From Candidatus Latescibacterota bacterium (GTDB taxonomy: Bacteria > Latescibacterota > UBA2968 > UBA8231), in contig OZ252098.1 in assembly GCA_965248355.1 (NCBI GenBank), positions 480,001-544,000 on the forward strand: a DNA stretch of 64,000 bases. The letters are read 5' to 3'. Under the pieces are notes generated by a model that was given only the letters and a program-made list of their open reading frames with translations, searched no databases and was not told where the DNA came from. Position numbers and translations under genes: made by a program. Below are positions 15,682 through 48,711 of the stretch, in pieces (within the stretch, counting starts at the first letter, position 1; each line of letters begins with the position of its first letter).

Positions 15682-15711
15682 TTGACTTGCCGCTCATTCC
15701 TAGACCATAAT
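15682..15711 (+). promoter_or_regulatory. Sigma70-type promoter of the FlgD-domain protein gene
   Basis: A-tract followed by TTGACT-N18-CATAAT. Confidence 0.6.
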
Positions 15712-15945: not shown

Positions 15946-17841
15946 ATGCGAGTCTCTCGGTTGCTCACCGCGGTGGGCCTGAGCGCCCTTCTCGCCGGTT
16001 CCGCCTTCGCCCAGACCACGAGATACGGGGACCCGGACTTCACTGTGGAGAGGGACTGGCGCAGCGGCATGCCCATCGTGCTGACCGCCAGCACCCAGGA
16101 CATGGGGTACGAGTTCGACGGCAATCCCCTGCAGATCCCCTTCACCATCGCCGGCACGCGGGCTACCGTCTACCTGGCGGTCTACACCAGCGGCGCCAAC
16201 CCGCAGTACGGCGGGGACCCCTTCGGAGTGGGCGGCATCGGCGGAGCCGCCCTGAGGACAGCGGGCATCGACACCCTGGTGTCCCTGTCCGCGGGGGAGT
16301 CCTTCAGCGCCGGATCCCACACCATCGCCTGGGACGGCAACGACTTCAACGGCAATGCCGTGGCCGCCGGCGACTACGACTTCTTCCTCATCGCCATCGA
16401 CGACGTCTCCAAGCCGACCTGGACCGGCCGCGGCTCCTATGTGTGGAGCAGCCGGGCCTACGACTTCCGCTTCGACCCACCCGTGGTGTGGAACACCAAC
16501 GGGCAGGGTTCCAATCCGGAGGACGGCACCAGCTACGAGCAGCGGCTCGAGCGGGGCCCCATGGGCGTCGATCTGATCGCCAACGGCGACGTGCCCACGG
16601 ACTTCCTGATGCCGTGGATGGTACCGCGGCTGAAGGAGCTCAACGCCGAGATGAACCCCGACCAGTGGGACCTGTCCTTCGTCGAGATCGACCCTCAGGA
16701 TCCGAACGTGGCGTACGTGGGCAACTACGGATGCTGCGCCGGCATGCCGGGCGGCTTCTGGAAGGTCAACATCGACCTCGACAACGTCTCCACGTCGCCG
16801 GAGGAGAGCTTTGCTGATCGCGGTCACATCGTCTGGGAGCAGCGCGTCGCCGACGCGGCGCTGATGGCCGAGCACACCAAGGAGTGGCTCAGCGACGACG
16901 GTCTGATCTACATGACCCACATGGACCGCGAGGAGCCCTTCACGCCCCAGATCGTGATGTTCGACCGGGCCACGGGCGACATCGCCAACGTCATGGACAT
17001 GACGGACCTGTACGTGCAGAACCGTCCGGACACCGACACGCCCGACGCCCCGTACGTGCCGGGGCCCTTCGGCATCGACGTGGACGACACGGGGATCTAC
17101 ACCAGCGCCTACTGGATGCAGGCGCCGCGGGCGTTCCCAACGAAGTACACCCAGGATGGCGACATCATCTGGCAGAACCAGAACGGCGACGGGTTCATCG
17201 ACCGCTACACGGGCGAAGAGGCCGAGGCCCTCGGTATCGTGGTCGTCGACCAGATGGTCAACACCGACATCAGCGTCACGCGCCACGGCATCTCGGTGGC
17301 CGGCGGCTACAACGACCCGGCCTGGGGCTACATCTTCGGTCCCGATGGTTCCGGTCTGCTGCGCTTGGATCTGCCTCACATGGGTCCCGATCTCGGTGGC
17401 GAGGTGGTCATCATCGACCGCGGCGGCGAGTACGACGGGTTGTATATCCCGGTTTGCTGCAACCGCGCCGTGCAGTGGCCCTTCGACATCGTCAAGGCCA
17501 GCATCTCCGAGGGCGTGACGATGGTGACCGAGGTCGACGCGGCCCTGCCCACGGCCTTTGAGGTGAGCGATGCGGCGCCCAATCCGTTCAACCCCGAGAC
17601 CAGCTTCCGGGTGTCGATTCCCGAGACTGGAAAGGACCTTCACGTCCACATCGCGGTATACAACACAGCCGGGCAGCAGGTGGCGGTACTGGCTGACGAG
17701 CCGATGCGTCCGGGAGTCTACCAGACCACCTGGGATGGCCGGGACATGAACGGTCGCAAGGTGTCGAGCGGGGTGTATCTCTACACCGTCCGCGCCGGAG
17801 CCGATTTTGTCGAGTCGAAACGGATGACCCTACTGAAGTAG
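15946..17841 (+). CDS. Secreted protein with two FlgD Ig-like modules and T9SS type-A-like C-terminal sorting domain
   Basis: AGGAGG RBS, signal peptide ...SAFAQ, GSHTIAWDGNDFNGNAVAAGDY, and C-terminal PNPFNP...WDGRDMNGRKVSSGVYLY...KRMTLLK. Confidence 0.8.
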   Translation: MRVSRLLTAVGLSALLAGSAFAQTTRYGDPDFTVERDWRSGMPIVLTASTQDMGYEFDGNPLQIPFTIAGTRATVYLAVYTSGANPQYGGDPFGVGGIGGAALRTAGIDTLVSLSAGESFSAGSHTIAWDGNDFNGNAVAAGDYDFFLIAIDDVSKPTWTGRGSYVWSSRAYDFRFDPPVVWNTNGQGSNPEDGTSYEQRLERGPMGVDLIANGDVPTDFLMPWMVPRLKELNAEMNPDQWDLSFVEIDPQDPNVAYVGNYGCCAGMPGGFWKVNIDLDNVSTSPEESFADRGHIVWEQRVADAALMAEHTKEWLSDDGLIYMTHMDREEPFTPQIVMFDRATGDIANVMDMTDLYVQNRPDTDTPDAPYVPGPFGIDVDDTGIYTSAYWMQAPRAFPTKYTQDGDIIWQNQNGDGFIDRYTGEEAEALGIVVVDQMVNTDISVTRHGISVAGGYNDPAWGYIFGPDGSGLLRLDLPHMGPDLGGEVVIIDRGGEYDGLYIPVCCNRAVQWPFDIVKASISEGVTMVTEVDAALPTAFEVSDAAPNPFNPETSFRVSIPETGKDLHVHIAVYNTAGQQVAVLADEPMRPGVYQTTWDGRDMNGRKVSSGVYLYTVRAGADFVESKRMTLLK

Positions 17842-17872
17842 CCCTGGTCCACAGGTGGTCCAGAGAAGAAAG

Positions 17873-17918
17873 GTCAGGTAGGTCCCACAGATGCGGTCTG
17901 GACCTACCTGACTTTTTT
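17873..17918 (+). terminator. Rho-independent terminator
   Basis: Perfect 13-bp stem GTCAGGTAGGTCC/GGACCTACCTGAC followed by TTTTTT. Confidence 0.85.
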
Positions 17919-17998
17919 GCTTCCCCGGGCAACTCCGGGGGGCCAGGTGCGGGAGGACGATCCCGCTGCTTCGCAGATCATCAAAGGGGGAGGGGGAC

Positions 17999-20095
17999 GT
18001 GACCCCGAGCAGGACTATCGCCAGGATGCTCCGTGCATTGCCGGTGATGGCCGTGGCCTGTGGCAGCGCGGTCACCGCCGACGATCATCTCGTCGATCTG
18101 GACCGGTGGCGAACTGCGATTCACTACCGGAACACCTTCGCCGCCGCAGGGGCCCGCCCCGGCACGCTGTACGTCGCCGCCGTGGACAGTTTCCAGGTCT
18201 GGTTCAATGGGGCGCCGGTGGGCGAGGACGCCGCAGCCCGCCGCGCCGCCGCGATCCCGGTCGAGCTGGTCAACGGCGGTAACCACATCGCCGTCAGGGT
18301 TGTGAACCACGGCCTTGGAGAGGGACACGGCATGGTGGCTCTCGTCGCCGCAGATACGCTGGTGGGCGTACATACCACGACGGACCGCAGCATCCAAAGC
18401 TGGTACTGGAGCGCGGCGCCCCAGGATGGCCCCGACTGGACCACCGAAGAAGCGGAGGATCTCGAGTGGAGCCTGGTCCAGAATGGCACCTTCGACCTGG
18501 CAGGTGTGGAGGGCCTGCCCGCCGGGGCAAGGGCCGCCGTGGCCGGCTTCCCTGGCGGGATCGACGCCGGCCATCCCGAAGGAGGCCTGCGGCTGAAGCA
18601 GATCGACGGCCAGAACCTGGCCGTCGGCACGCCGGCCAACCGCATCGAGGTCGTCGATGGCGATCTGAACACCTCCTGGGATCCCCCGGTCAACGCCCTG
18701 AACTTCACCGCCAGCCTGGACCTGCAGGTGAGGCGCAACATCCACACCCTGCGCGCCCTGACGCGGCCTGGCCGCAGCGCACAGGACTTGGAGGCCAACT
18801 CCCTCCGCGGCTATTCGGTGCACATCAGCGACGATCAGATCCGCTGGTCGGAGGTCGGCGTGCTGCGGGGCATCACCGAGTTCGCCAGCACCGAGGTGAC
18901 GTTCCTGCCCACCTGGACCCGTTACATCCGCCTGGTCATCATGGAGATCAATGCCATCACCCAGCCCCGGGTGGCGGAAGTAGAGGTCTACGGATCCGGT
19001 CACACTGACCGCGGAGCCTTCGTCTCCGAGCCACTGGACTTCGGACTGACCGACACGGCCAGGAACTTCGGCCGCCTGTGGTGGCAGGCCGACGTGCCGG
19101 AACGCACCCAACTGTCGGTGCAATTCCGGAGCGGTCATACGCAGGAGGATTTCAGCGACGCGGAGGCGGGCTGGAGCCGGGCCTTCAGCGGCCACGGAGA
19201 CACCCTCTGGTTTCCCTCGGCGGAGCCGGCCCGCCTGCTGCAGTATCGTGTCAGCATGTCGACGCGCGACGACACCCGGACGCCCCTCTTTCGCCAGCTT
19301 GTCATCGAGAGTTCCCAGGATCTGGCCGTCACCGAGGCGCGGGCACACGTCAGTCCGAAGACGGCGCGTATCGGCGCAGATACGACGTTTCAGTATACCC
19401 TGGACCTGAGCTTTGGCGAAGGGGCCCAGGGCGTGGAGCGTCTGGCCATCGAGGTCCCGAGCCAGGCCGAGTTACTGACGGTTTCCGGCCTGGGCCCTCG
19501 ATCCGTGAGTACCTGGTCATCGACGCAGCGCAGCCTGCAACTGGAATTCGACGAGCCCTTGCGGGAGGATACCCAACTGGTCATCTCCTTCCGCACCAAG
19601 ACCTTCGCCACGGCCCACAGCTTCCGCTCCGCCCTGTTCTCACCGGGCTCGGAGAACCCCCTCAACCTGCAAGAGAACACGAGTGTCGACGAGGAGACGG
19701 GGGAGGCCCTCTCCTGGCACTTGCTGGCCATCCTGGCTCCCCAGGAGGTCCTGTCCCGCGTGCGGCCCAATCCCCCGGCCTTCTCCCCGAATGGCGACGG
19801 GATCAACGACTTCACGGTGATCGAGATGGTGCTGTCCAAGGTCGACATCCCCGCGCCGGTAAAGGTCGAGATCCATGACCTCTCGGGCCGCCGCGTAGCG
19901 AGTCTGGGCGAGGCGGGGCTGACGGCAGGCACCTACTTCTCGGATGCCTTCACCGGCCCCGGGAGTCCGGGGTACTGGGACGGACGCGACGGAGCGGGCG
20001 CGCTGGTGCCCCCGGGCCTGTATCTCTACCGCGTGGAGGTGCAGCTCGACACGGGTGACGAAGTCTCGGTGGGAACCGTGGCCGTCGCCTACTGA
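17999..20095 (+). CDS. Secreted discoidin (F5/8 type C)-like protein with gliding-motility/T9SS type-B-like CTD and FlgD module
   Basis: YSVHISDDQIRW...TRYIRLVI...VAEVEVYG (discoidin-like) and FSPNGDGIND...WDGRDGAGALVPPGLYLY at the C-terminus. Confidence 0.75.
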   Translation: MTPSRTIARMLRALPVMAVACGSAVTADDHLVDLDRWRTAIHYRNTFAAAGARPGTLYVAAVDSFQVWFNGAPVGEDAAARRAAAIPVELVNGGNHIAVRVVNHGLGEGHGMVALVAADTLVGVHTTTDRSIQSWYWSAAPQDGPDWTTEEAEDLEWSLVQNGTFDLAGVEGLPAGARAAVAGFPGGIDAGHPEGGLRLKQIDGQNLAVGTPANRIEVVDGDLNTSWDPPVNALNFTASLDLQVRRNIHTLRALTRPGRSAQDLEANSLRGYSVHISDDQIRWSEVGVLRGITEFASTEVTFLPTWTRYIRLVIMEINAITQPRVAEVEVYGSGHTDRGAFVSEPLDFGLTDTARNFGRLWWQADVPERTQLSVQFRSGHTQEDFSDAEAGWSRAFSGHGDTLWFPSAEPARLLQYRVSMSTRDDTRTPLFRQLVIESSQDLAVTEARAHVSPKTARIGADTTFQYTLDLSFGEGAQGVERLAIEVPSQAELLTVSGLGPRSVSTWSSTQRSLQLEFDEPLREDTQLVISFRTKTFATAHSFRSALFSPGSENPLNLQENTSVDEETGEALSWHLLAILAPQEVLSRVRPNPPAFSPNGDGINDFTVIEMVLSKVDIPAPVKVEIHDLSGRRVASLGEAGLTAGTYFSDAFTGPGSPGYWDGRDGAGALVPPGLYLYRVEVQLDTGDEVSVGTVAVAY

Positions 20096-20110
20096 TCGCC
20101 GGCGATTGGG

Positions 20111-22825
20111 ATGATCGGCATGACTCCCACGCCGGGCAGGGGGCGCTGCCGGCAGGCCGTGAGGGCCGGCCTGGGAGCCCTCATGGGGCTGCTGGCCGCA
20201 GCCGGCGATTCCGGGGGGCAGTCCCTCGACCGGGACATCGAGTGGGGATACCAGCAGTTCCTGACGCGCGAGTACCGGCCCTTCTGGGACGAGCGCTACG
20301 AGAATCTGTCCTTCCTCAGCTACCGGAACTTCCCCATTCGAGGGGAACAACCCAGGTACGATCCTTTCGGGCTGTACCTGCTGGACGGCAGCGAGATCCT
20401 GCGCATCGAGGAGTACCGGACCTTGGATCCGGGCAACAGTTCCCGGATCCCCACAGGCCCCAGTTTCGGACAGTTTCGGAACCTGGTGATCATGCGCGAC
20501 CACTACGGCAGCTGGTCGACGCGGCTGATGCTCGGACAGCGCCTGAAGGCACACCTGTCACCCCTGGCGCACGCCCGGGCCACCTTCGACGGCATCCGCT
20601 GGGACGCATCCTCTCATCGCAACATGATCTCCATCCTCACATCTCGCGTTTCCCACCGGCCCGCAACAGCTCCCCGGGCCACCCCTTTCGGAACCTACCT
20701 CTACGGGGGGCGATGGCAGAGCCAGCTGGGGGATATCGCCACCTTCGGGGCGACCTACGCCGACGTCCACCTGCGCGACACCTCGCAGAGAAAGGGGGAT
20801 TTTCGCGGTGTCTTTCCGAAGGATCTGAACCCGGCGGACTCCTACTTCGTGATCGTCAGTGACGACAGTCCCGAGGACGGTGTCGGGCCGCTGGTGTACG
20901 CCGTCGAGATGTGGTCTCAGGGGAGGCGGATGGAGGCCCAGGCCGAGGTGCGCTGGGTCCTGGGTGCGGCTCGCTCCGATGACGTGGCCCACATCCGCAG
21001 GAACGGGTCCTGGGCCGTCCTGTCCATGGAGGCCGACCGGTTGTTGAAGCCGGTACAGCCGGGAAGGGGACGTTTCTACAGCAGCGGCATCCCCGCTGTG
21101 GTCGATGGCCGGGGCACGGAGGTGGCCGGTACCGACCTGCTCGTAATTCGATTTGACGCGCCGCCCGAGACGGAGGATTTGCACTTCCGGGTGTTGGCTT
21201 CGGGTGACTACAACCTCGACCTGGGCGCCTCCTACGTGCTGGCGGGGGTGCCAGACCGATCCTGGTCCGACTGGCACAACGTGACCCGGGCCCCGGGCAA
21301 CGTGCGCGACGGATCCAACCTTGGCTGGGTGGATCTCTACTACGGCTTTCCCACGGGCCTGGCGAATCTCGGCGCCGATATCGAGATCGACCTGTGGGAT
21401 GTGGAGGTGAAAGGCGAGTACGTCCGCAACACCTCGAACTACCAGCTCCCGATATTCGGCGATCATTCCCGGCGGCGCACGGCGGCGTGGTACCTCAAGG
21501 GCGTGCGCCGCATGGGCGAAGGCTGGCGGCTGGGCGGCGAGATTCACCACATGCCGTCCGACTACGTCAACTCTCTGCCCATGTGGTCGCACAGCACCCG
21601 CAAGGTCCTGGCCTACCACATGGTAGAGGACAACGACGACCGCGACGAGTGGCCGGACGAGTACGAACACTGGGATCCCTTGCACCCCACCTACGTCACC
21701 AACAAGCGGAACAACGTCGACGTGGACGCGGCCCTGTCCGAGGTCAGCCGCGACTACGGCTTCGGGGGGGACTTCACCTACGGCGTGTACCCGGGTCTCG
21801 ACGCGGACCAGGACGGGGAGCCGGACACCAACGTCAACCGGAACGAGTTCGCCGACTACGTGGAGCCTTTCCTGATGTACTACGTGGAGCCGGACGAGTT
21901 CGTCTACGGAGATGACTTCAACAACAACGGCGTCGTGGACCCCCGCGAGAACGACAACCGCCCCGACTATCCCTATCCGCTCGATTCGGATGGCTACCAC
22001 GTCTTCGGCAGCTTCCTGGGCGGAGCGGGCCGGGTCCAGGCCCGCATCGGCCGTTACGAGTTGCACCAGGCGGCCGGCGACGGCCGTAACGAGGTCTCCT
22101 ATGCCGAGGCCCGTTACCGGTGGCGGAGTCCGCGCTCCGGCAGCCTCGATCTGCGTGGCCGCCTTCGACGGGTGAAGGACGACATCCCCGACCCCACTTA
22201 CATCACGATCGTGGAACCCCTGTCGGCGACCAACCGGGCCACGGCGATCCATCTCGACCGGTTGCTGACGCGGAACAGCCTGGTCAACACCGTCTACGCC
22301 GGGTCCGTGTACGATGGTGTAGCCGGCCTGACCGTGGTAAACGCCACCAAGCTGGACGTCAATCGCCGCCTGGATGACCGGCGAGGCATGGGAAAGACCA
22401 TCACGGACTGGACGTGGGTCAGCAAGGCGGACTACGCCTGGGGTTTCTCCGAGCACCTGACTTTCACTCCCATGGCCAAGCTGCTGGTGCAGCGCCTCGA
22501 CGGCCCCGGCGACCTGATCGCCGACCGGCACACGTGGGAGTGGTTTCCGATCCTGCGCCTCGACCTTTCCTTCAGCCAGTCCACGGGAATCCGCACCGGC
22601 GTGCAGGGGTTTCCCTTCAAGCACCTCTACCGCCACGCCGAATCCAGGTCCTCCAACTTCGACGCCCGCCACTACGTGGTCACCTTCCACACCCGGCGGA
22701 GTTACACCGGCTACAACGCCAGCATCAATGTCGGCTTGCGCCGCAGCCGTGAGGAACTGACAAACCTGCAGGCCGGGAGCGTGCGGGACTTCACCCAGTT
22801 CTTCGTCCAGGCGCGGATCCTCTGA
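20111..22825 (+). CDS. Hypothetical outer-membrane beta-barrel protein with Asp-rich Ca-binding-like loop (paralog 1)
   Basis: 904 aa, signal-like N-terminus, amphipathic strands, and motifs shared with the next two ORFs (GNVRDxSNLxW, DNDDxD, YGDDxNNNG, PDYPY). Confidence 0.7.
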   Translation: MIGMTPTPGRGRCRQAVRAGLGALMGLLAAAGDSGGQSLDRDIEWGYQQFLTREYRPFWDERYENLSFLSYRNFPIRGEQPRYDPFGLYLLDGSEILRIEEYRTLDPGNSSRIPTGPSFGQFRNLVIMRDHYGSWSTRLMLGQRLKAHLSPLAHARATFDGIRWDASSHRNMISILTSRVSHRPATAPRATPFGTYLYGGRWQSQLGDIATFGATYADVHLRDTSQRKGDFRGVFPKDLNPADSYFVIVSDDSPEDGVGPLVYAVEMWSQGRRMEAQAEVRWVLGAARSDDVAHIRRNGSWAVLSMEADRLLKPVQPGRGRFYSSGIPAVVDGRGTEVAGTDLLVIRFDAPPETEDLHFRVLASGDYNLDLGASYVLAGVPDRSWSDWHNVTRAPGNVRDGSNLGWVDLYYGFPTGLANLGADIEIDLWDVEVKGEYVRNTSNYQLPIFGDHSRRRTAAWYLKGVRRMGEGWRLGGEIHHMPSDYVNSLPMWSHSTRKVLAYHMVEDNDDRDEWPDEYEHWDPLHPTYVTNKRNNVDVDAALSEVSRDYGFGGDFTYGVYPGLDADQDGEPDTNVNRNEFADYVEPFLMYYVEPDEFVYGDDFNNNGVVDPRENDNRPDYPYPLDSDGYHVFGSFLGGAGRVQARIGRYELHQAAGDGRNEVSYAEARYRWRSPRSGSLDLRGRLRRVKDDIPDPTYITIVEPLSATNRATAIHLDRLLTRNSLVNTVYAGSVYDGVAGLTVVNATKLDVNRRLDDRRGMGKTITDWTWVSKADYAWGFSEHLTFTPMAKLLVQRLDGPGDLIADRHTWEWFPILRLDLSFSQSTGIRTGVQGFPFKHLYRHAESRSSNFDARHYVVTFHTRRSYTGYNASINVGLRRSREELTNLQAGSVRDFTQFFVQARIL

Positions 22826-25554: not shown

Positions 25555-28421
25555 GTCCGGTGAGGCGGTTCCACATTCTGGCCCTGCTCCTGGCAGCGAC
25601 GGCCGTCTGGGGGCAGCGGGACCAACCGGGGGGTGACACGCCCTGGCTGGACAAGGAGGAGGACCCGCCGGATCGACTGGGCGTCACCCGCGTGGTGCCC
25701 GGCGAGGAGTTCCTGTACCGGGCCTGGGCGGACTACGAGAACTACGGCATCCGCGACTTCCAGCTTCCAGAGACCTCCTGGCAGGCCCGCCGCAACCACT
25801 ACGGCCCCATGGGGAACTTCCTCCTCAACGGCTACGATTCCTACCGGTGGCTGGAAACGCGGGCCAACTCGAGCCGCGGCGACGCGCCCAACAGCACCTT
25901 GTCGAAGTCGAACATGGGCATCTTCCAGCAGAACCTGGTGGCCCGGGAATCGCACAAGGGCTGGGCGACGGCGCTGATCCTGGGCGAGGAGATGCGCACG
26001 AAGTTCACCCCTCTCACGCTGAGCCTGGCGGGCATCAACGGCGTGCGCCTCGACGCGCAGCGCCAGTTCCCGCAGTGGTCGACCCGGTTCACGGCCCTGG
26101 CCTCGCGCTGGAGCGCCCCCGTGTGGACGGGGAACGTTACGGGCGAGCAGCAGGACACGCGCCGTACCCTCTCCATGCTCATGGCCGCCCACTCCGACGT
26201 CCAGGTAGGCCGCCTCGTCACCGGCGGCACGGTGATCAACTATCACAACGCCGACGCATACCAGGAGTCCTTCAACCTCAAAGGCCAGCTCCAGTCCGGC
26301 CAGGTCAAGCCGAGCTTCGTCGTGGTCAAGTTCTCCGACGACTCGCCTTTCGACGAGGAGGGCGGCGCCGTGATCAATGACGTCTTCCTCGTCGTCGACG
26401 GCGTCGAGCGCCACGACCTGCAGCCGACCTACGTGCGCGTCAACTCCAGGAATCCCACGGCACTCGGGCGCTTCAACCGGCTCACGGGTCAGTTCAACCG
26501 CACCATTTACAACGACGGCGGGATCCGGTTCGCCGACTACTTCTATCGCCTCGACCAACTCTCCGGGCAGGAGGTGAGCAACGTCAACCTCGAGGAGTTG
26601 GAGCGCTTCATCCAGGTCGTGCCGCCCACGGCCCGCCTGGAGGCGAGCGGCGACTGGGTCATCCTGGCCTGGTTCGATCTCCGGGCCGAGCCGTCGGTGC
26701 GCTCCGTCGAGGTGCGGGCCCTGGTGGGAAACGACTACCGCATCGACGTGGTCGGGCTCTTCGACGACGATCCGCGGCAACGGACCTACGAGGGCCGCTG
26801 GTCGGCGGGAGGCATCGAGGGGCAGGCGAGGGCCAAGGGCAACGTGCAGGACCTGTCCAACCTCGGCTGGGTCAGCATCGACGCCGGAGCCTGGACGGGA
26901 CGCTACGTGCTCGGCTGGAACGGCTCCTGGGAAGGACGGGATGGCCGGATCCGCTGGGAGTACGCCCGCAGCCTCGACTACTTCCGGTATCCCGACGGAC
27001 CTCCGGGACACCGCCAGCCCAAGGAGATCACGGGTGTCCGGATCTGGAAAGGGGAGGTGAGCAGGCACACGGAGCACGCCTACTACGTGACCGCCGAGTG
27101 GGGGCGCGGTCTGTGGGAAGCCGGTGCCGAGGCGTTCTCGCTGCCCGACCGCTTCAACCGCCACCTGCCCACCACCTCCACCTTCGCCCTGGCCCGTACC
27201 GATGGCTTCGTGGAGGACAACGACGACAACGACAGCTGGCCCGACGCCGGCCCGGGAGACCGGCCCCGGCACTTCGGAGACAAGTCCTCCGACCCGGACG
27301 GGGTCTTTCCCGGCAAGGACGAGGACAACGACGGCATTCCCGACACCAACCGCAATCAGAACGACCTGCCCGACTACGAGGAAGCCTTCCTTCTGTTCTA
27401 CGTGGAACCCGACGAGTACGTCTACGGCCGCGACTGGAACCACAACGGCGTCGCGGATGAGCGCGAGGACGACCTCGAGCCCGACTTCCCGTACCAGCTC
27501 GGTCAGGCGGGCGCCCACGTGTACGGCCGCCTGAACCTGAGGAGCCGCTGGCTTCCCGGGGTGTTGACCCTCGGCCTCGGCCGTCTCGACGCCGAGGGCA
27601 TCGCCAACGGAGGACGAAACGAGAGCGACTACGGTCAGCTCATCTGGAGGGCCGGGGTCCCCGGCGTGGCACAGGTTCGCTTTGAGACCCTTCTCGAACG
27701 GGTCCACGACGACGTGGCGAATCCGTACTACCGCCTCGACGAGATCCTCGGCGAGCCCCTTGGCAGCGGCGGCTTCACCTTTGCCGGCGCCACGGCCTAC
27801 CACCGCGTCGTCGTGCGCGATCCCCTGGAGTGGCGCAACAGCACCGAGCGCCAGCACTACCTGCAGTGCGAGTTGCAGCCCCTGCCCGGGCTGAGGCTGT
27901 GGGGCAACCTGCGCCATTCCCTCAACGAGCAGAAGGGCGGCGTCCTCATCGAGGGCCGCGACCTGGGGCCGGACGAGATCAGCCTGTGGACCTCGGTCAT
28001 CAAGGCCGAGTACGTCTGGGAGCCGACCCGAAGCTGGCAGATTTTCGGCCAGGCCAAGGGCCTGCTCCTGCGCGAGGACCGGGTCAGTGTGGCCACGGAC
28101 CTGCAGGACCAGCGCACCTTCGTGCCCATCGTCAAGGGCCGCTATGCCCTGACGCCGCGCACCGACCTGTGGCTCGGGGTGCAGGGCCTGCCCGGGCTGC
28201 CCCTCGTGGTGAGGGACCGGGCGGACGGGTTCAACTCCCGCGAGGAACGGGTCTGGGTGGCGCAGCTGACGAACAAGTCTCCGTACCTCGGCTACGACAC
28301 CGCCATGACCCTCGGCGTCAAGAGCGTCGATCGCGACTACCAGGATCCGACGCGGGAGCTGGAGGACATGCAGGTCCTCTCGATCTTCCTGCGCATCCTG
28401 CTGGGCTACACCATCGACTGA
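25551..28421 (+). CDS. Hypothetical outer-membrane beta-barrel protein with Asp-rich loop (paralog 3)
   Basis: 956 aa, GTGA overlap with paralog 2, clear signal peptide, same motif series. Confidence 0.7.
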   Translation: MSPVRRFHILALLLAATAVWGQRDQPGGDTPWLDKEEDPPDRLGVTRVVPGEEFLYRAWADYENYGIRDFQLPETSWQARRNHYGPMGNFLLNGYDSYRWLETRANSSRGDAPNSTLSKSNMGIFQQNLVARESHKGWATALILGEEMRTKFTPLTLSLAGINGVRLDAQRQFPQWSTRFTALASRWSAPVWTGNVTGEQQDTRRTLSMLMAAHSDVQVGRLVTGGTVINYHNADAYQESFNLKGQLQSGQVKPSFVVVKFSDDSPFDEEGGAVINDVFLVVDGVERHDLQPTYVRVNSRNPTALGRFNRLTGQFNRTIYNDGGIRFADYFYRLDQLSGQEVSNVNLEELERFIQVVPPTARLEASGDWVILAWFDLRAEPSVRSVEVRALVGNDYRIDVVGLFDDDPRQRTYEGRWSAGGIEGQARAKGNVQDLSNLGWVSIDAGAWTGRYVLGWNGSWEGRDGRIRWEYARSLDYFRYPDGPPGHRQPKEITGVRIWKGEVSRHTEHAYYVTAEWGRGLWEAGAEAFSLPDRFNRHLPTTSTFALARTDGFVEDNDDNDSWPDAGPGDRPRHFGDKSSDPDGVFPGKDEDNDGIPDTNRNQNDLPDYEEAFLLFYVEPDEYVYGRDWNHNGVADEREDDLEPDFPYQLGQAGAHVYGRLNLRSRWLPGVLTLGLGRLDAEGIANGGRNESDYGQLIWRAGVPGVAQVRFETLLERVHDDVANPYYRLDEILGEPLGSGGFTFAGATAYHRVVVRDPLEWRNSTERQHYLQCELQPLPGLRLWGNLRHSLNEQKGGVLIEGRDLGPDEISLWTSVIKAEYVWEPTRSWQIFGQAKGLLLREDRVSVATDLQDQRTFVPIVKGRYALTPRTDLWLGVQGLPGLPLVVRDRADGFNSREERVWVAQLTNKSPYLGYDTAMTLGVKSVDRDYQDPTRELEDMQVLSIFLRILLGYTID

Positions 28422-28429
28422 GAAGGATC

Positions 28430-31400
28430 ATGTTTGCCTGGATCACATTGGCTCTGATCGTCGCCTTCTACGGGGCCACTCGCAACGTGCCCACGGCCGA
28501 CGAGATCAAGGCCTCCTTCGACCACGGCCAGAAGTTCTACTCCTCCGGCGCCTATGATCAGGCCATCGGCGAGTACCGGTCGATCCTCAAGAGCGGCAGC
28601 TCGCTTTTGAGGATGGAGGGCGTCACCGTCTCGGTGGGCGACATCGAGGCGCCCCTCCAGGAGGTGGCGACCTACCAGATCGGCAACGCCCATCTCAAGA
28701 TGGCCGAGGAAGCCCTCGAGCGACGCTCCCGGGCCCGTGACCTGGAGACGCAGCAGGACCTGCAGGCCCGGGCCGGAGATCTCCTGGCCGAGGCCATCGA
28801 CTACTTCGAGATCACCGAGGAGCGGGCCACGGTGGACGTCCTGCGGGCCCTGGCCCGCAGCCAGATCATCACCTGCCACTACAAGCGCGGGGACTATGAA
28901 GGCACCATCGATGCGGCCCTGACCCTGATAGAACATTACCCCGCGAGCAAGTACGTGGTGCAGGCCATGTACGACATCGGCTGGGCGTACTTCGACATGG
29001 AGGAGTACGCCTCCAGCGCCGGCGCCTTCGAGAGGCTCGTGAAGCGCTTTCCCTCCGGGTACCGAGGAAACCGGGCGCTGTTCCAGATCGGCGAGTCGTA
29101 CTTCCGGCTGGAGCGCTACCGTGACGCCATCCCGCAGTTCCGGCGCCTTGTCGAGTCGCAGCGAATCGGCCAGATGTCGCAGCGCGAGTTGCTGGTCATG
29201 AAGCGCGAGAAGCTCGCCGGCCTGGTGGACGAGACGGCCCTGGAGCTGGCCGCCAAGGCGATGATCCGCCTCGGCGAGTGTTACGAGCGAATCGGCGATT
29301 ACCAGGAGGCGAGCCGGGCCTTCGAGACGGTGGCGACGCAGTTCCAGGAGGAGCAGCGGCTGGCCGAGGAAGCCTACCTCCGCCACGCGGATATGCACTA
29401 CAGCCGCGGGGACTTCGAAGCCTGTATCGCCGTATACCGGAAGGCCATCGAGAACGACCCCGACATGGGGGACAAGGCCCGACTGCAGCTGCTGATGGCG
29501 AACCGTTACTTCGAGACCGAGCACTATCCGGAGGCGGCCCTGGAGTACACCATCTACCGGGATACGTACGCCATGTGGGCGGCTGCCGCCGGCCTGCCCG
29601 TGGAAGGAGTGGGCCTGCAGATCGCGCGGGCCTGGTTCCGGCGGGCGGCCCTGGTGGAATCGGCCCGGCGCCTGGACCCGTACCGGCGCGCCGAGGCGGA
29701 ACTGAAGACCACCCTGCGCGCCTATCGGGGCTCGGCGTACGATGTGGAGTTGCGCTTCAATCTCGGCCTGGCCCTGGAGCGGCAGGAGGACGAGGCCAAG
29801 ATCACCGAGGCCCTCGCCCTCTACCTCGACCTCATCGAGGATCCCCAGTCCGGCGGCTACCGCCAGAGCGCGCGCTTCCAGGCCGCCCGGATCCTGCACG
29901 ACCGCCAGGATTTCGGGGCCGCCGCCGACCAGTACCGCCGGGTCATCCTGGAGATGGCGGACCGTGCCGAGGTGCAGATCGCCCGTTTCGAGCTCGCCAA
30001 TGTCCTGCGCGACGCCGGGCGGCTCGACGAGGCCGTCGCCGCATACCGCGAGGTCGATCCCGAAGCCGAGTTGTTCGCACGCTCACGCCTCGAGGCCGGG
30101 CAGTTCCTGCTCTCCGCCGGCCGCACCGGCGAGGCGATCCCCATCCTCGAGGAAGGCCTGGCGCCGCAAGGAGAGGCCGACCGGGAGACCCTGGCCCTGC
30201 TGCACTACCTGCTTGGCGCCGCCCATTCAGGCCTGGAGCAGCACGAGGCATCCGTGCCCTGGTTCTCCATGGCCATCGAAGGGGGCGTGGAGACCGTTCT
30301 GGAGCAGGCCGTCTACGGACGTGGACTGGCCAATTTCCGGATGGGCCGCTTACAGGAGGCGGCTGCAGACCTCGATCGCCCGTGGCAGCAGACGGAGTTC
30401 CTGAGCTCGGCTTCCAGACTCCTGGCGGCCTGCTACACGCAGCTCGATCGGACCGACGAGGCCCTGGAGGTATACCAGAGACTCGCTTTGGAGACGGAGA
30501 CGGTCCTGGAGGAGGCGGAGTTCCGTCTGGCACACGCCGAGATCCGCTATCGGCAGGGCGGCTACGAGGAGGTGGTCGAGGCTTGCCGCGCCATCGAAGC
30601 CCTGGACGTGACCGAGACGGAGTTGCCGAGGTCGCGGCCGTACTACGTGCTCGAGAAGTCCTACTACCTGAAGGCCGACGCCTCCCTGCGGCTGAATCGA
30701 TTGACCGACGCGGCCGGGGCGGCGGCCAAGGGCTGGCAGCGGTTTCCAGGCGGGTATTTCGCGGCCGATTTCCTCTTTCTGCGGGGCCTGGCCGACCTGC
30801 AACTCGATGCCAACGAATCCTCCGTGGCCTCCTTCACCCGGATGCTGCAGCGCTTTCCCGACCACGGCAATGCCCCGTACGCCCTCTACTACCGAGCCTA
30901 CGGATACTTCAACCAGACCATGTTCCGGGAGGCGGAAGCGGACTTCCACCGCCTGCTGCGCGAGCACCCGGAGATCGATGTCGCAGCCGACGCCGCCTTC
31001 CGCACGGCCGAGTGCGTGTACAACCTCGGCCGCTTCGCCGAGGCCGCAGGCGCCTACCAGGCCTTTCACGACCTCTTCCCGTCGACGCCGCTGGCCGAGG
31101 AAGCCCTTTACAACGTCGCCTGGTGTCATCTGAACAAGCGCGGCGAACTGGGACGGCACGAGGCCGAGGCACGGCGCAGCCTGGAAACCTACCTGGAGGC
31201 CTATCCAGGGGGACGTTGGGCGTCCACGGCGCGGTACACCCTGGCGGAGATTCGCTACAACGCCGGGGAGTACGACGCGGCCTACGGGATGTTCGTGGAC
31301 ATCGAGGAGGAGTTCCCCGGCACGGAAGCGGCACGCCGCGCCGCCGGGGCTCTCCCGGACCTCAGGGAAGCCGTGGCCTACAAGGCCTACGAAGCGGCCA

Positions 31401-31681
31401 TGGAGGAATTCAACTTGGCCGTGGAGAGCGAGAGCGACGACGACGTGCGGGCGGTGATCCCCCGGCTCGAGGTGATCTGGGAGGAGTATCCCGGAACCTC
31501 CAGTGGCATCGGCGCACGTGTGAACATGGCGGTTGCATACCAGAAGCTGAGGCGGTGGAGACAGGCGGTGGAAATCTTCGACGAGATCGTCGCCGCCTCC
31601 GAGGGCGGCGCTCCGGTGGAACCCAATGTGCTGGCCTTCTGCCAGCGCCGCAGCGGCACGATCAGGAGGAAGCACCTGTGA
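28430..31681 (+). CDS. Large exported TPR protein (BamD/CpoB-like repeats), ~1080 aa
   Basis: AAGGA RBS, N-terminal hydrophobic helix and repeated 'A...F..L...(F/Y)P.S....A.(Y/F)..G..YF' units. Confidence 0.85.
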   Translation: MFAWITLALIVAFYGATRNVPTADEIKASFDHGQKFYSSGAYDQAIGEYRSILKSGSSLLRMEGVTVSVGDIEAPLQEVATYQIGNAHLKMAEEALERRSRARDLETQQDLQARAGDLLAEAIDYFEITEERATVDVLRALARSQIITCHYKRGDYEGTIDAALTLIEHYPASKYVVQAMYDIGWAYFDMEEYASSAGAFERLVKRFPSGYRGNRALFQIGESYFRLERYRDAIPQFRRLVESQRIGQMSQRELLVMKREKLAGLVDETALELAAKAMIRLGECYERIGDYQEASRAFETVATQFQEEQRLAEEAYLRHADMHYSRGDFEACIAVYRKAIENDPDMGDKARLQLLMANRYFETEHYPEAALEYTIYRDTYAMWAAAAGLPVEGVGLQIARAWFRRAALVESARRLDPYRRAEAELKTTLRAYRGSAYDVELRFNLGLALERQEDEAKITEALALYLDLIEDPQSGGYRQSARFQAARILHDRQDFGAAADQYRRVILEMADRAEVQIARFELANVLRDAGRLDEAVAAYREVDPEAELFARSRLEAGQFLLSAGRTGEAIPILEEGLAPQGEADRETLALLHYLLGAAHSGLEQHEASVPWFSMAIEGGVETVLEQAVYGRGLANFRMGRLQEAAADLDRPWQQTEFLSSASRLLAACYTQLDRTDEALEVYQRLALETETVLEEAEFRLAHAEIRYRQGGYEEVVEACRAIEALDVTETELPRSRPYYVLEKSYYLKADASLRLNRLTDAAGAAAKGWQRFPGGYFAADFLFLRGLADLQLDANESSVASFTRMLQRFPDHGNAPYALYYRAYGYFNQTMFREAEADFHRLLREHPEIDVAADAAFRTAECVYNLGRFAEAAGAYQAFHDLFPSTPLAEEALYNVAWCHLNKRGELGRHEAEARRSLETYLEAYPGGRWASTARYTLAEIRYNAGEYDAAYGMFVDIEEEFPGTEAARRAAGALPDLREAVAYKAYEAAMEEFNLAVESESDDDVRAVIPRLEVIWEEYPGTSSGIGARVNMAVAYQKLRRWRQAVEIFDEIVAASEGGAPVEPNVLAFCQRRSGTIRRKHL

Positions 31682-32877
31682 TGGACCGTCTATCGGTTCT
31701 TCGCTACGGACGCAGGCTCCTCTACCTGGGCCTGGTGGCGTCGGTGGCTCTCCACCTGGCGGTCGGTGCGGTCTGGCTCCTGCCGGAGGACGAGGAGGAG
31801 GAGCGGGTTGTGGCCCGTTTCGAATTCGAGGAACAGGACACGCCGCTCTTCGTGCCGGCGCCGCGGCTGGCGCGCGAGTTCGCCTTCCGCAAGCAACCGA
31901 TCCCCCAGGGCACGCCCATCGTGCGGTCCAGCGGCGACGAGACGTCGACCACCGTGGGCGGCGCCGTGGGCCGCGTGCGCATGTCACCCACCTCGGCCAC
32001 GTGGACCCGTACCGGGGGGAGCGCCGACTTTCTGGTCGACGTTGGCGCCGGCGACCTGAGTGCCGCCGTGGTCGGCTTGCCCCGGTTCGAGGCGGTGGAG
32101 CTGACGAGCCTGAAGGAGCCGGAGCGGCGGATCGACATGGAGGCCGAGTTCCTCGACCTGACGGCCCTCAATACGGGCCGCTACCGGGGCATGGTGATCC
32201 AGGATCCAACGGACAAGCAGAACATCACCGGCTTCGTCTACCTGGCCCTGGCCTGGGGGAGCATCCTGGAGCCGTCCCAGAAACGTTCGATCAACCAGCT
32301 CGTGCGGGCCATCAACAACTACACGCGGATCGAGGCCCAGGAATACGATCAGATGTTCCTCGACTCGCAGGCGCTGTTCAAGGCGCCCTTCGTCTACATC
32401 GCGGCGAACCGGTCCTTCGAGCTGACCGAGCACGAGTCCCGGAATCTGGCCCGCTATCTGCGCAGCGGCGGATTCGTCGTGGCCGACAACGGCCGGCCGG
32501 ACCTGGAATTCGGCCCCGCCGAGGCCAGCCTGCGGCAGATGTTCCGCGAGGCCCTGGGCCGGGACGCCCGGTTCGTGCCTCTGCAGAACGACCACCCCAT
32601 CTACCACGTGTTCTTCGACTTCGACGACGGCCCTCCGCCGGGGGGCGAGGTCTCGAACCGGAATTATCGCCGAACGGTGTATTTCCTGGAGGGGATCTTC
32701 CTCGGCGACCGGCTGGTGGCCATCTACTCGGACAAGGGCTACGGCATCTTCTGGGAAAGGGAAACGCAGAACGAGCCCCACTTGAAGATGGGGGTGAACA
32801 TGGTGGTCTTCGCCCTGACGCAGAAGGGCTCCATCGCGCAGCAGCAGATCGACTTCTACAACCAGCACAGCCAATGA
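31681..32877 (+). CDS. DUF4159-domain protein with TonB/TolA-like N-terminal anchor (SxxxH)
   Basis: TGATG overlap. TM helix GLVASVALHLAVG. C-terminal PFVYI...LARYLRSGGFVVAD...DHPIYHVFFDF...LEGIFLGDRLVAIYS...MGVNMVVFALT is typical of DUF4159. Confidence 0.8.
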   Translation: MDRLSVLRYGRRLLYLGLVASVALHLAVGAVWLLPEDEEEERVVARFEFEEQDTPLFVPAPRLAREFAFRKQPIPQGTPIVRSSGDETSTTVGGAVGRVRMSPTSATWTRTGGSADFLVDVGAGDLSAAVVGLPRFEAVELTSLKEPERRIDMEAEFLDLTALNTGRYRGMVIQDPTDKQNITGFVYLALAWGSILEPSQKRSINQLVRAINNYTRIEAQEYDQMFLDSQALFKAPFVYIAANRSFELTEHESRNLARYLRSGGFVVADNGRPDLEFGPAEASLRQMFREALGRDARFVPLQNDHPIYHVFFDFDDGPPPGGEVSNRNYRRTVYFLEGIFLGDRLVAIYSDKGYGIFWERETQNEPHLKMGVNMVVFALTQKGSIAQQQIDFYNQHSQ

Positions 32878-32923
32878 GACCAGGCTGGATCCCATGGGCC
32901 CGGACAGACAAGGAATGAACCAC

Positions 32924-34192
32924 ATGGGGCAAGGCAGTCAGGAACGAAGCACGAGGGGCCGTCGAGGTCATTGGCGGGGGCGGGGCGCGCTTGGCCTCGC
33001 CTTGATGGTATCCCTGCTCACCGTCCACTGCAGCTTCCTGCGCGAGGCGATCTACCCCGAACGCTACGACCGGGTGGTCTCCCTGCTCCCGGGGGAGCAG
33101 GGAGAGCAGGGCATCACGGTCGGCGAGGGCGGACTGGTCTCCTACGAGATCGAAGGGCTGAGAATCGCCGTCGAGCACATGACCGATCACGAGCTCAACT
33201 CCATCTTCCCGAACGAGTCCAACAAGGGGCAGTACTCGATCAACCCCTACACGTACGGAGATTACGTGGACCCGACCCTGGGATACGTTCGGACCCGCTT
33301 TGCCGTGTTCCGGGTCACCGTCACCAACCAGGACTTCGCCAAGGTGGCCTTGCAGCCCCTGCAATTGCTGCTGACCACGAACCGCCCCGGCGAGGTCCTC
33401 AGGGCCTACGGGGTGCTCGCCGGTTCGGCCCCCCGCAACTTCGAGTCCTACTACCGCGCGCTGAAGGGACCCAGCGGCAACGAGGACTACCGGTTCAACA
33501 TGCGCATGGGCCTGGTGCGCACGAACAACTATGCCGTGGACGAGGAGATCTTCAAGGGCGAGCAGTACTCCGGGTTTCTCGTCTTCGATCCCCTGGAGGA
33601 CGCGGTGACCGATGTGCAACTGCATCTGAAGGACTTCATCCTGAAGTTCAACGCTTTCGGCAAGCCCCTGGAGACGACGGACGTCTCCTTCACCTTCCGT
33701 CGGACCGTGGAGCAGCAGATCCTCGATTTCGCGCGCGCCGAGGAATGGGAGTTCTCGGAAGCCCGACTGGCGGCGGCCAGCCAGGTCGTGGGCAACGCCA
33801 CGGGGGATATCACGCGGGACGTGACCGCCATCGACGCCTTCGCCCGCACCCGGCTGGAGGAAGTGAATGACTGCTTCGAGGGCCCCTTCATGGAAGGCAA
33901 GGCTTCGGAGGGGAAAGTGACGGCCCAGTTCGTCGTCCTGGCCAGCGGCATGGTGGAATCGGCCCAGATCCTGGAAGCCACGGTCGTCAGCGACGAGGTG
34001 AGCCGTTGCGTGGAGGAGAGAGTTCGGTCCTGGCGGCTGCAGCCTTCCACCGGCGTGGCCCCGGTGGCGGCCGAATCTCAGGAACAGGAACCGTCCGACG
34101 CGGCCATGGCCCCGGTTCCGGTCCGCGGGCCCACCTCGGCGCGGGTGACGGCAAGGGTCTACTTCGAGTTCCAGGACGTGCGGCCGGAGTAG
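32924..34192 (+). CDS. Putative lipoprotein with C-terminal AgmX/PglI (TonB-C-like) domain
   Basis: Hydrophobic stretch ending in TVHC, and C-terminal DCFE...GKVTAQFVVLASGMVESAQI...VSRCVEERVRSW. Start could be 32894, 32915 or 32924. Confidence 0.7.
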   Translation: MGQGSQERSTRGRRGHWRGRGALGLALMVSLLTVHCSFLREAIYPERYDRVVSLLPGEQGEQGITVGEGGLVSYEIEGLRIAVEHMTDHELNSIFPNESNKGQYSINPYTYGDYVDPTLGYVRTRFAVFRVTVTNQDFAKVALQPLQLLLTTNRPGEVLRAYGVLAGSAPRNFESYYRALKGPSGNEDYRFNMRMGLVRTNNYAVDEEIFKGEQYSGFLVFDPLEDAVTDVQLHLKDFILKFNAFGKPLETTDVSFTFRRTVEQQILDFARAEEWEFSEARLAAASQVVGNATGDITRDVTAIDAFARTRLEEVNDCFEGPFMEGKASEGKVTAQFVVLASGMVESAQILEATVVSDEVSRCVEERVRSWRLQPSTGVAPVAAESQEQEPSDAAMAPVPVRGPTSARVTARVYFEFQDVRPE

Positions 34193-38760: not shown

Positions 38761-38766
38761 GTCCCG

Positions 38767-38775
38767 AATATAGCA
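38767..38775 (-). promoter_or_regulatory. Extended -10 promoter, probably leaderless transcript
   Basis: TGC-TATATT lies 6 nt before ATG 38760 and there is no RBS. Confidence 0.45.
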
Positions 38776-38873
38776 ACGGAGTCGCGGAGGGCGGGACGGG
38801 GCGGTGTCACCAATGGGCGCCCGGCGTCTTGCCATCCTCCCCTTCCCCCACCGAAGTTTCCCTGCCGAGTCGA

Positions 38874-47897: not shown

Positions 47898-47923
47898 CTG
47901 GTGGATCCGTCGAGCTGTGAGGG

Positions 47924-48601: not shown

Positions 48602-48682
48602 CGGGTCCTCCTTTCGAGCCGGTCGGCCGGGTTGCAGAGCGGGAGATGGCTTCTCCACGGACACGACTCCATCCAAGGCCAC

Positions 48683-48711
48683 ATTGTACGGATATGCTCT
48701 GGGGTTCACAA
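48683..48711 (-). promoter_or_regulatory. Sigma70-type promoter of exbB-exbD-exbD
   Basis: TTGTGA-N17-TACAAT on the minus strand, ~80 nt upstream of exbB. Confidence 0.65.

Follow-up and report, generated by a model that had tools for sequence, protein, structure and literature searches.

In the window analysed here, a 64,000-nucleotide stretch at C1:480001-544000 of the 5.50-Mb single-contig genome of a Candidatus Latescibacterota bacterium, eight tightly packed genes on the forward strand (g1-g8, window positions 15946-34192) encode two exported proteins, three members of a predicted giant outer-membrane barrel family, a tetratricopeptide repeat (TPR) protein, a transducer with a DUF4159 head, and a lipoprotein. 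We propose that this cassette, together with a TonB-less ExbB-ExbD-ExbD stator encoded in the same window, forms one envelope machine driven by the proton motive force, of a type conserved across phyla of the Fibrobacteres-Chlorobi-Bacteroidetes (FCB) group. Taken as a whole, that statement stands in our judgement at an even balance; that cassette and stator form one machine is probable, and that the job of the cassette is energised capture or uptake of macromolecular nutrients is a possibility to which we give somewhat less than even weight. Positions prefixed C1 and those of the genome-wide motor matches refer to the contig, all others to the window.

The unity of the cassette is indicated by comparison within the genome and across phyla. 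Searches of the genome by tblastn with the products of g1-g8 revealed that the gene order is kept at five places: cassette A (C1:151243-169498), cassette B, which is the cassette in the window (C1:495946-514189), cassette C (C1:549934-573396), cassette D (C1:1574690-1591991, with no g8 match) and cassette E (C1:1954753-1973883). Full-length paralogues of g1 occur in the four other full cassettes and g6 in all five. In addition, about eight reduced loci carry g2-like genes with one or two barrels and often a g8-like gene, and barrel genes of at least 780 codons number 26 in the genome. Between cassettes, g7 is the most conserved protein (50-67% identity) and g1 and g2 are the least (31-49%). 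A scan of species genomes in GTDB returned 527 stretches that encode a barrel relative, and the best 80 of these were examined by tblastn of the cassette proteins; many of the loci end at contig ends, so that gene counts per locus are lower bounds. At least three barrels are present in 30 of the 56 loci labelled Latescibacterota or Gemmatimonadota or left unlabelled, which contain g2 in 36 cases, g6 in 31, g7 in 28, g8 in 28 and exbB in nine. The 24 loci labelled Ignavibacteria, Bacteroidota, KSB1, Kryptoniota or Zhuqueibacterota have one barrel each, accompanied by g2 (22 loci), g8 (18), g6 (17), g7 (15) and exbB (11), usually in the order g2-barrel-g6-exbB-exbD-g7-g8-g7. The conserved unit, both within the genome and across phyla, is thus g2, barrel, TPR protein, (exbB-exbD), DUF4159 protein and lipoprotein. 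In the sample of its own phylum, the barrel family was found in 94 of 151 genomes, and in 63 of 63 of its own family; first-look barrel candidates ran to tens per genome, with up to 100 in one.

The distribution of motor genes ties the cassettes to the stator. ExbB matches lie at seven places in the genome, of which one (2228026) stands 1.4 kb before the only TonB_C match of the genome (C1:2229876) and constitutes an ordinary Ton operon. The other six lie in cassettes or at most 13 kb from them: between cassette genes at 237774 (between g6 and g7) and 565622 (between g7 and g6 of cassette C, with both ExbB and ExbD confirmed by Pfam), directly after cassettes D (1592539) and E (1974919), 7 kb after cassette A (176534), and 12.9 kb after cassette B (527927). 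The window stator is encoded on the reverse strand by exbB (47924-48718, with a likely start at 48601, MELLTQ...; MotA_ExbB PF01618, E 6.5e-30), a first exbD (47466-47918, start uncertain; ExbD PF02472, E 8.6e-22) and a second exbD (47067-47465; ExbD PF02472, E 1e-19), and no TonB_C match was found in the window. Its ExbB is 54% identical to the ExbB that follows cassette A by 7 kb, and is the probable stator of cassette B. The two ExbD copies are unlike: the first has Asn (ITPVVNVALVLLIIF) at the position where ExbD and TolR normally have a transmembrane Asp, a residue important to these proteins, and the second has the Asp (NITPMGDVSLCLLLGF). As far as the residues themselves can tell, this difference hints at a stator plug formed by a heterodimer, in which only one residue would carry protons. 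Plug domains were matched 21 times in the genome, the nearest about 29 kb from a cassette. An earlier note on this DNA, made from the window, had suggested that the genes form one unit energised by the proton motive force, had linked them with a TonB-less ExbB/ExbD operon, and had asked for a test of gene order in relatives; recurrence at five places here and in other genomes, the six of seven ExbB loci at cassettes, and exbB-exbD inside the cluster in other phyla now support the unit and its tie to the motor. As a separate observation, cassette C carries extra genes between g5 and g6 (C1:562948-568113), which encode a DUF5683 protein, a 125-residue protein without a family, ExbB, ExbD and a DUF4340 protein.

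Gene calls were made from an open reading frame listing with a check of start codons, and domains were scanned with Pfam and NCBIfam. The first two genes are separated by about 160-185 bp, depending on the start of g2; from g2 to g8, neighbours either overlap by stop/start motifs (TGATG at 22825 and 31681, GTGA at 25551) or leave gaps of 8-16 bp. The eight co-oriented genes with these three overlaps, and an exbB-exbD-exbD operon at 47067-48601, had been described previously and were verified in the sequence and by Pfam matches, respectively; the operon lies on the minus strand. The same holds for the protein content then given (two proteins with type IX secretion system (T9SS) tails, three proteins of ~900 residues, a TPR protein, a DUF4159 protein with an S-x-x-x-H helix and a lipoprotein with an AgmX/PglI domain), the domains of which Pfam and NCBIfam confirm. 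A promoter-like site lies at 15682-15711, although the promoter scan found two sites where shuffled sequences lead one to expect 1.4, i.e. not above chance; a terminator scan found none after g8.

The barrels g3 (20111-22825, 904 residues), g4 (22825-25554, 909 residues) and g5 (25551-28421, 956 residues) are paralogous over their full length, with identities of 26-28% (E 4e-78 to 7e-58), g3 and g4 being the closest pair (28%, E 4e-78) and g5 at 26-27% to both. None of the three matches a Pfam or NCBIfam family at E <= 0.1. An AlphaFold2 model was built for g4, the only paralogue modelled, from a 43-sequence alignment, which yielded a nearly all-beta structure with a mean predicted local distance difference test score (pLDDT) of 77.6 and a predicted template modelling score (pTM) of 0.78. 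Foldseek searches with this model returned outer-membrane barrels only (SlpA 8ae1 at E 5e-9, LptD, MtrB, SprA and TonB-dependent transporters), with TM-scores near 0.2. Similarly, VIA-align placed 7zgx first (Z 13.5, 393 residues aligned, root-mean-square deviation (rmsd) 8.6), with dozens of other barrels at Z 10-13. SlpA, LptD and MtrB are thus the closest folds, but with TM near 0.2, rmsd of 8-20 Å and many unrelated barrels scoring nearly equally, and with no sequence match to a solved chain, the model describes g4 as a very large barrel that is close to no particular known family. A profile of the barrel family run against PDB sequences gave only chance-level DegP rows (E 0.3-1.7) and hence no relative of a solved structure. 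The g4 model includes a beta-sandwich insertion at residues ~240-365, while a conserved segment near the N-terminus of the barrels (residues ~28-75) is modelled poorly. Conservation within the family peaks in an acidic, Asp/Asn-rich segment at residues ~526-612 of g4 with many invariant Asp and Asn, which to the eye looks like a calcium-binding repeat and matches no Pfam model. The family has 46 close database homologues, none of them functionally named, and 918 cluster representatives at E <= 1e-3 among 1.84 billion. Among the homologues, one carries an SlpA_C match below cut-off (22.5 bits against 35), and Pfam finds no SLH match. Membership of a PorP/SprF-type family is likewise not indicated by any Pfam or NCBIfam match at E <= 0.1, although the presence of a PorP/SprF model in those libraries is unconfirmed; PorP/SprF proteins are far smaller than ~900 residues. 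The earlier description of three paralogous barrel-like proteins from an uncharacterised family therefore stands, with full-length paralogy, a giant predicted barrel for g4, and homology to g4 as the basis for g3 and g5.

The relationships of the barrels were examined with a FastTree phylogeny of 48 sequences, which comprised all the long barrels of this genome minus one duplicate row, and those of 12 chosen loci elsewhere. Barrels in the first, second and third positions of the triplet form three clades of ten rows each (support 100, 100 and 99), which implies that the triplication is older than the cassette duplications and that each cassette has retained one representative per kind. For cassettes A, D and E, one-to-one counterparts exist elsewhere (in genomes with loci L015, L024 and L022, respectively), the solo barrels of the reduced loci make up a separate clade, and the single barrels of other phyla group weakly with position 1 (support 80). 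On this tree, g3, g4 and g5 belong to three ancient, position-specific orthogroups (positions 1, 2 and 3). Two further observations concern barrels of other cassettes. Just upstream of cassette A, an extra position-3 barrel (C1:147502-150405, minus strand) is near-identical to that of cassette A itself (branches of 0.09 and 0.06), and is a recent duplication. In the first-barrel matches of cassettes C and E (C1:555272-556939 and 1959968-1961641), in-frame stops occur, one TAG and one TGA; these could be broken copies or matches that cross gene borders.

Downstream of the barrels, g6 (28430-31681) encodes a 1083-residue protein with a hydrophobic N-terminus (MFAWITLALIVAFYG) and many TPR families, including the YbgF/CpoB-type TIGR02795 (153.7 bits) and the BamD-type TIGR03302 (130.3 bits), both over cut-off and in several stretches. 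The 398-residue g7 (31681-32877) has the architecture of a TonB/TolA-like transducer: a sole N-terminal hydrophobic helix with the S-x-x-x-H pattern (GLVASVALHLAV / VASVALHLAV), a post-helix box with an invariant Pro (P61), a linker of ~130 residues, and a DUF4159 head at residues ~200-379 (Pfam, E 3e-31). In an alignment of 32 g7 homologues, in which the His and Ser were counted by hand, the helix His is present in 20, and 15 of those 20 also have the Ser four residues before it; the features common to the alignment are the post-helix box with its Pro, a variable linker and the DUF4159 head. The TonB/TolA-type anchor previously assigned to g7 is upheld by this single helix. Pfam reveals no TonB_C on g7, the head being DUF4159 only, and no von Willebrand factor A (vWA) family at E <= 0.1; the only sequence relative of the head in the PDB is the uncharacterised protein 4i66 (E 4.4e-7).

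Transducers of comparable design are already in print. Williams-Jones et al. 2025 (Mol Biol Evol, PMC12204202) describe TolA/TonB-like proteins with an SHLS helix and a non-TonB 'vWA-fold' head of unknown function, which were reported from phyla that include Bacteroidetes and the genes for which have as neighbours a TPR gene, a tolQ/exbB-like gene and a dissimilar pair of tolR/exbD-like genes. As far as the available text of that paper goes, these proteins resemble g7 in having one S...H helix, a post-helix box, a linker of ~100-150 residues and a head unrelated to the TonB/TolA C-terminal domain (CTD), and their loci resemble the cassette in having an adjacent TPR gene and exbB with two unlike exbD genes, as in the window and also in paralogous cassettes. 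They may differ in the head itself, which in g7 is DUF4159, a term ('DUF') that does not appear in the main text of PMC12204202. In the same text, the passages on a 'barrel' concern TolB and Pal instead of barrel clusters of the cassette type, and we did not meet giant barrels, T9SS-tailed partners, the g8 lipoprotein, triplication or multi-cassette expansion. Consequently, the label 'undescribed' given to the system by the earlier note needs to be divided: transducers with SHLS helices and non-TonB heads have been published, in so far as that text covers them, while the barrel family and the cassette are unpublished as far as we found.

The last gene, g8 (32894-34192), encodes a 432-residue lipoprotein with an invariant Cys46 after a hydrophobic stretch, preceded by His at -1, which is not a textbook lipobox. 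Its model (pLDDT 86.6) contains two domains. The first, an Ig-like beta-sandwich (residues ~55-276), matches the YcdA/YjhA/MPT63 group at Z 9.2-7.8 (YcdA 4r4g, Z 9.2; YjhA 3cfu, Z 8.5). The second, at residues ~304-430, has the fold of a TonB/TolA CTD, with the Neisseria meningitidis TonB CTD 9ddz as the best match (Z 7.5, rmsd 2.6, 81 residues) and FusB, Helicobacter pylori TonB, Escherichia coli TonB and TolAIII as further ones. By sequence, this tail passes the AgmX/PglI C-terminal domain model NF033768 (49.3 bits, cut-off 40) and reaches just 17.5 bits for TonB_C (cut-off 24.6). It had been suggested that g7 and g8 are the two halves of a split TonB, but the tail was matched in only 15 of 59 g8 homologues, with 44 lacking it, and the conserved part is the sandwich. 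Moreover, the ~500-residue forms of g8 from other phyla carry DUF4159 in place of the tail in all five examined. The sandwich is thus joined to DUF4159 elsewhere and to a TonB-CTD fold here, which indicates that two heads occupy the same position on the lipoprotein and hints that, in function, DUF4159 corresponds to the TonB head. The sandwich-DUF4159 fusion prompted a complex prediction for g8 (residues 47-432) with the g7 head (residues 185-398); its score of 0.04 speaks neither for nor against binding.

Upstream of the barrels lie the two exported proteins. The 631-residue g1 (15946-17841) has a signal-peptide-like N-terminus (MRVSRLLTAVGLSALLAGSAFAQ), ~530 N-terminal residues that match no known family, and a C-terminal T9SS-type tail (FlgD_ig, 56.1 bits against a cut-off of 27; CHU_C, 27.6 against 27; TIGR04183, 21.8, just below its cut-off of 23). 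The 689-residue g2 (18026-20095, with an alternative start at 17999) combines a discoidin domain (F5_F8_type_C, 35.5 bits, cut-off 28.2) with a CHU_C-like, type-B-like tail (26.4 bits, just below 27). Searches of the ESM Atlas retrieved for g1 only leads below 0.9, which are NHL-propeller proteins with the same tail, and for g2 its own family. Genes like g2 accompany all 13 barrel loci of the genome and 22 of the 24 loci labelled as other phyla, and g2 appears from this pattern to be the constant upstream partner of the barrel. As for their export, SprA (606 bits summed) and two PorU over cut-off are encoded elsewhere in the genome, with a PorV-like gene beside one PorU (158 bits against a cut-off of 250), and the g1 tail matches at about 50 places, most of them far from any cassette. 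Since these components and tailed proteins are present, g1 and g2 are most simply read as ordinary T9SS cargo, and the export of proteins with such tails needs no new barrel. The T9SS core genes that were found all lie outside the window, as the earlier note had stated for the window itself; its proposal of a machine that exports the CTD proteins is not borne out.

Based on these elements, the machine may be pictured as follows. The ordinary T9SS would export g1 and g2, and the barrels would hold them on the cell surface, after the model of type-B cargo and a neighbouring PorP/SprF-like barrel in Bacteroidota. The products of g3, g4 and g5 would act as three non-redundant subunits, possibly of a heterotrimer, with the g8 lipoprotein and the g6 TPR protein beneath them, and ExbB/ExbD would pull on the outer-membrane complex via g7. 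Each cassette would then be a separate, substrate-specific unit similar to a polysaccharide utilization locus (PUL). Use of nutrients is hinted at by the discoidin domain of g2, by the divergence between cassettes, which is greatest in g1/g2 and least in g7, and by neighbours of catabolic type. The Ton system is the obvious comparison: its stator belongs to the same 5:2-type family and its transducer has the same S-x-x-x-H helix, and SusC-SusD loci also combine large barrels, a partner lipoprotein and many paralogous copies beside catabolic genes. However, the transducer head is DUF4159 in place of TonB_C, the barrels have neither Plug nor TonB_dep_Rec, six of the seven cassettes with both g6 and g7 have a stator of their own nearby instead of a shared TonB, and the surface partners are T9SS cargo where Sus loci have SusD-type lipoproteins. 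A bolder formulation, which we put forward as speculative and rather doubtful, is that the cassette represents a third kind of energised outer-membrane nutrient importer, apart from plug-bearing TonB-dependent transporters and SusC/D: heterotrimeric plug-less barrels with T9SS-delivered binding proteins outside, gated from below by a lipoprotein and a DUF4159 transducer with its own stator, and multiplied into substrate-specific copies.

Several points weigh against the proposal. In the window, exbB-exbD-exbD lies 12.9 kb beyond g8 on the opposite strand with unrelated genes between, so that the motor link rests on paralogous and orthologous loci, and at one locus that carries g6, g7 and g8 (2463-2477 kb) ExbB had no match in the vicinity. 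Twelve of the 32 g7 homologues lack the helix His, among them the proteins of cassettes C, D and E, three cassettes that exbB genes do adjoin. Neither a Plug nor a TonB_dep_Rec domain (Pfam, E <= 0.1), nor a TonB box, was found in the barrels, an absence that had been noted previously for the plug and one that leaves substrate gating unexplained. The count of ~30 strands in g4 was taken from the DSSP string and closure of the barrel is a prediction, and the barrel fold of g3 and g5 follows from homology to g4. The nutrient reading depends on a generic binding domain and on neighbours that are not the same at every cassette, and giving each cassette a motor departs from PULs, where a single TonB is shared. 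Finally, the contacts among components are putative.

Alternatively, the cassette could be a carrier of surface adhesins for movement or adhesion, in which g2 (and g1) would be held by the barrels and moved, or put under tension, by the motor via g7, g8 and g6, on the pattern of SprB-SprF in Bacteroidota, which an internal track drives, or of Agl-Glt in Myxococcus. The type-B-like CHU_C tail of g2, always encoded beside a barrel, suits this idea, as does the finding that type-B cargo binds the PorP/SprF-like barrel that neighbours it (Gorasia et al. 2022, PMC9143113) and that a motor-driven track in the periplasm is coupled to outer-membrane barrels (Liu et al. 2025, PMC12635249), to the extent that the available parts of these papers describe it. 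Judged by the same sources, the type-B/PorP-SprF/PorE/track system shares with the cassette a type-B-like tailed protein encoded beside a barrel, a TPR protein and a lipoprotein beneath, and a proton motor; it differs in that the cassette has ~900-residue barrels without an NCBIfam match at E <= 0.1, ExbB/ExbD in place of GldLM/PorLM, and no GldK/PorK-type ring protein. The g8 tail that passes the AgmX/PglI model resembles the Agl-Glt (gliding) and Nfs (spore-coat) machines of Myxococcus, which also combine a TolQR-type motor with TonB-like proteins bearing that domain. Giant TPR proteins and several paralogous outer-membrane barrels are also features of Agl-Glt. However, g8 reaches only 29.3 bits of the 650 required for the GltG equivalog (NF033760), its AgmX-like tail sits on a lipoprotein and is dispensable in most homologues, and neither DUF4159 nor T9SS cargo is a Glt part. 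Substrate diversity accounts better than a single motility apparatus for five full and about eight reduced cassettes and their one-to-one orthologues elsewhere, and motility is not known from this uncultured lineage. We consider this explanation unlikely.

A device for secretion or assembly is less plausible again: the barrels would export or insert g1 and g2, or ExbBD with g7 would energise the T9SS in place of PorLM/GldLM. The attraction of this idea lies in the T9SS complement of the genome, which has SprA, two PorU and about 50 tailed proteins, yet neither GldL, GldM nor GldN was matched and GldK stayed below cut-off (best 85.5 bits against 350), although the GldL and GldN searches lacked a positive control. 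Of sprA, porV and porKLMN, for which a check across genomes had been proposed earlier, this genome has sprA and a PorV-like gene below its cut-off, with nothing over cut-off for the motor and ring components in these searches. Across the phylum sample, GldM was over cut-off in none of 151 genomes, though SprA was found in 146; the same search detected GldM in 14 of 61 genomes of a second phylum (that of genome G151), which demonstrates that it works. However, two sister families of the same class have SprA in 30 of 30 and 19 of 19 genomes, the barrel family in 0 of 30 and 0 of 19, and no GldM, which indicates that the cassette is not a general replacement of GldLM. In the second phylum, 32 of 49 SprA-bearing genomes have neither GldM nor a barrel; the three barrel carriers and the 14 GldM carriers there do not overlap, but chance alone would give this in about one case in three. 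The co-occurrence comparison of SprA, GldM and the barrel therefore does not support the cassette as a T9SS-motor replacement, and most of the ~50 tailed proteins are encoded far from any cassette. We regard a secretion device as improbable. The GldM model may miss divergent forms. Separately, sub-threshold matches to the GldK model (61-68 bits against 350) occur directly after cassette A (C1:169855-170328) and beside a reduced locus (4414747-4415208); GldK/PorK is the T9SS ring lipoprotein in Bacteroidota, and these matches may or may not be meaningful.

A tether or outer-membrane stabiliser similar to Tol-Pal would account for the motor, the TolA-like S-x-x-x-H anchor, the CpoB-like TPR protein with its YbgF/CpoB-type match over cut-off, and an outer-membrane lipoprotein with a TolA/TonB-CTD fold. 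SlpA, the top Foldseek match of g4, sits in the outer membrane of Deinococcus and anchors it to the cell wall. Many divergent copies, each with surface cargo, would be unexpected for a housekeeping tether, and neither an OmpA/Pal-type domain in g8 (Pfam, NCBIfam) nor a TolB-like gene among g1-g8 (Pfam) was found, which renders this explanation very unlikely. Weakest is the view that there is no single machine, only neighbouring envelope genes beside ExbBD motors that serve ordinary TonB-dependent receptors: the stator does stand outside the operon in the window, and 21 Plug matches set against one TonB could use extra motors, but with six of the seven ExbB loci no more than 13 kb from a cassette in a genome that spans 5.5 Mb, two of the six flanked by cassette genes, no Plug match within ~29 kb of a cassette, exbB-exbD inside the cluster in several phyla and a motor-binding type of helix in g7, we find it scarcely credible.

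The preferred reading, of a cassette energised by ExbB/ExbD and concerned with nutrients, is compatible with genes in its surroundings, which fit nutrient use but are not uniform. Upstream of cassette B are a sulfatase (11088-13025, minus strand) and a 519-residue TPR protein (13297-14856, plus strand). The interval between g8 and the stator contains FG-GAP/ASPIC proteins, a DUF4838 protein, and two proteins of 609 (37006-38835, minus strand) and 790 residues (40633-43005, minus strand) without a Pfam match at E <= 0.001. Genes for a BNR protein, an ABC sugar-binding protein and the permease belonging to it follow cassette A, and a GlcNAc-2-epimerase-like protein precedes cassette C. A DUF6785/DUF6784 protein (658 residues at C1:546299-548275, with counterparts near cassettes A, D and E) adjoins cassettes A, C, D and E but not B, and could be an associated inner-membrane component. 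In a further observation, the FG-GAP/ASPIC-UnbV proteins just after cassette B are encoded at 34223-37222 (minus strand, fused to a long TPR region) and 38829-40598 (plus strand), with paralogues near cassettes C and E.

In eight RNA-library runs of two studies, 22-39% of the sampled words were present. Contigs from four of the runs cover 22-29 of 30 bins at 95-99% identity, and bridge g1/g2, g2/g3, g4/g5, g6/g7 and g7/g8, with DNA carry-over possible; such contigs cannot reveal strand, level or a single transcript. Some 660-bp bins have no contig cover in some runs, e.g. 27.8-28.4 kb in three, which is evidence of nothing. Overall, the RNA contigs lend weak support to expression of the cassette.

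Literature searches returned no paper on the barrel family or the cassette; the listed papers on the T9SS in Fibrobacteres and Ignavibacteria do not mention the cluster in their titles or abstracts, and no paper was found on Latescibacteria together with type IX secretion. DUF4159 turned up in the Pfam paper alone, and nothing relevant emerged on ExbB in Latescibacterota or on the T9SS in Gemmatimonadota. New in the window are the position-specific barrel triplet, the multiplication into many cassettes, with TonB-less stators near six of these, and, on the g8 lipoprotein, the interchange of a TonB-CTD fold with DUF4159. To our knowledge, energy of the inner membrane reaches the outer membrane by few routes, namely Ton, Tol, Agl-Glt, the T9SS motor and the flagellum. 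The cassette would add a further arrangement, in which an anchor of TonB/TolA type with a DUF4159 head is wired to a barrel family without a Pfam or NCBIfam model. With the barrel family in all 63 sampled genomes of its own family and 26 barrel genes in this one, the cassette type is not marginal. The barrel triplet also offers a clean natural case of a homo-oligomer candidate turning hetero-oligomeric, and, should a culturable carrier turn up, the one-barrel version of other phyla could open the system to experiment. If polymer uptake is the true function, this would change the reading of carbon use in metagenome-assembled genomes labelled Latescibacterota or Gemmatimonadota, and in Ignavibacteria and their relatives, lineages in which annotation of the PUL type currently finds little.

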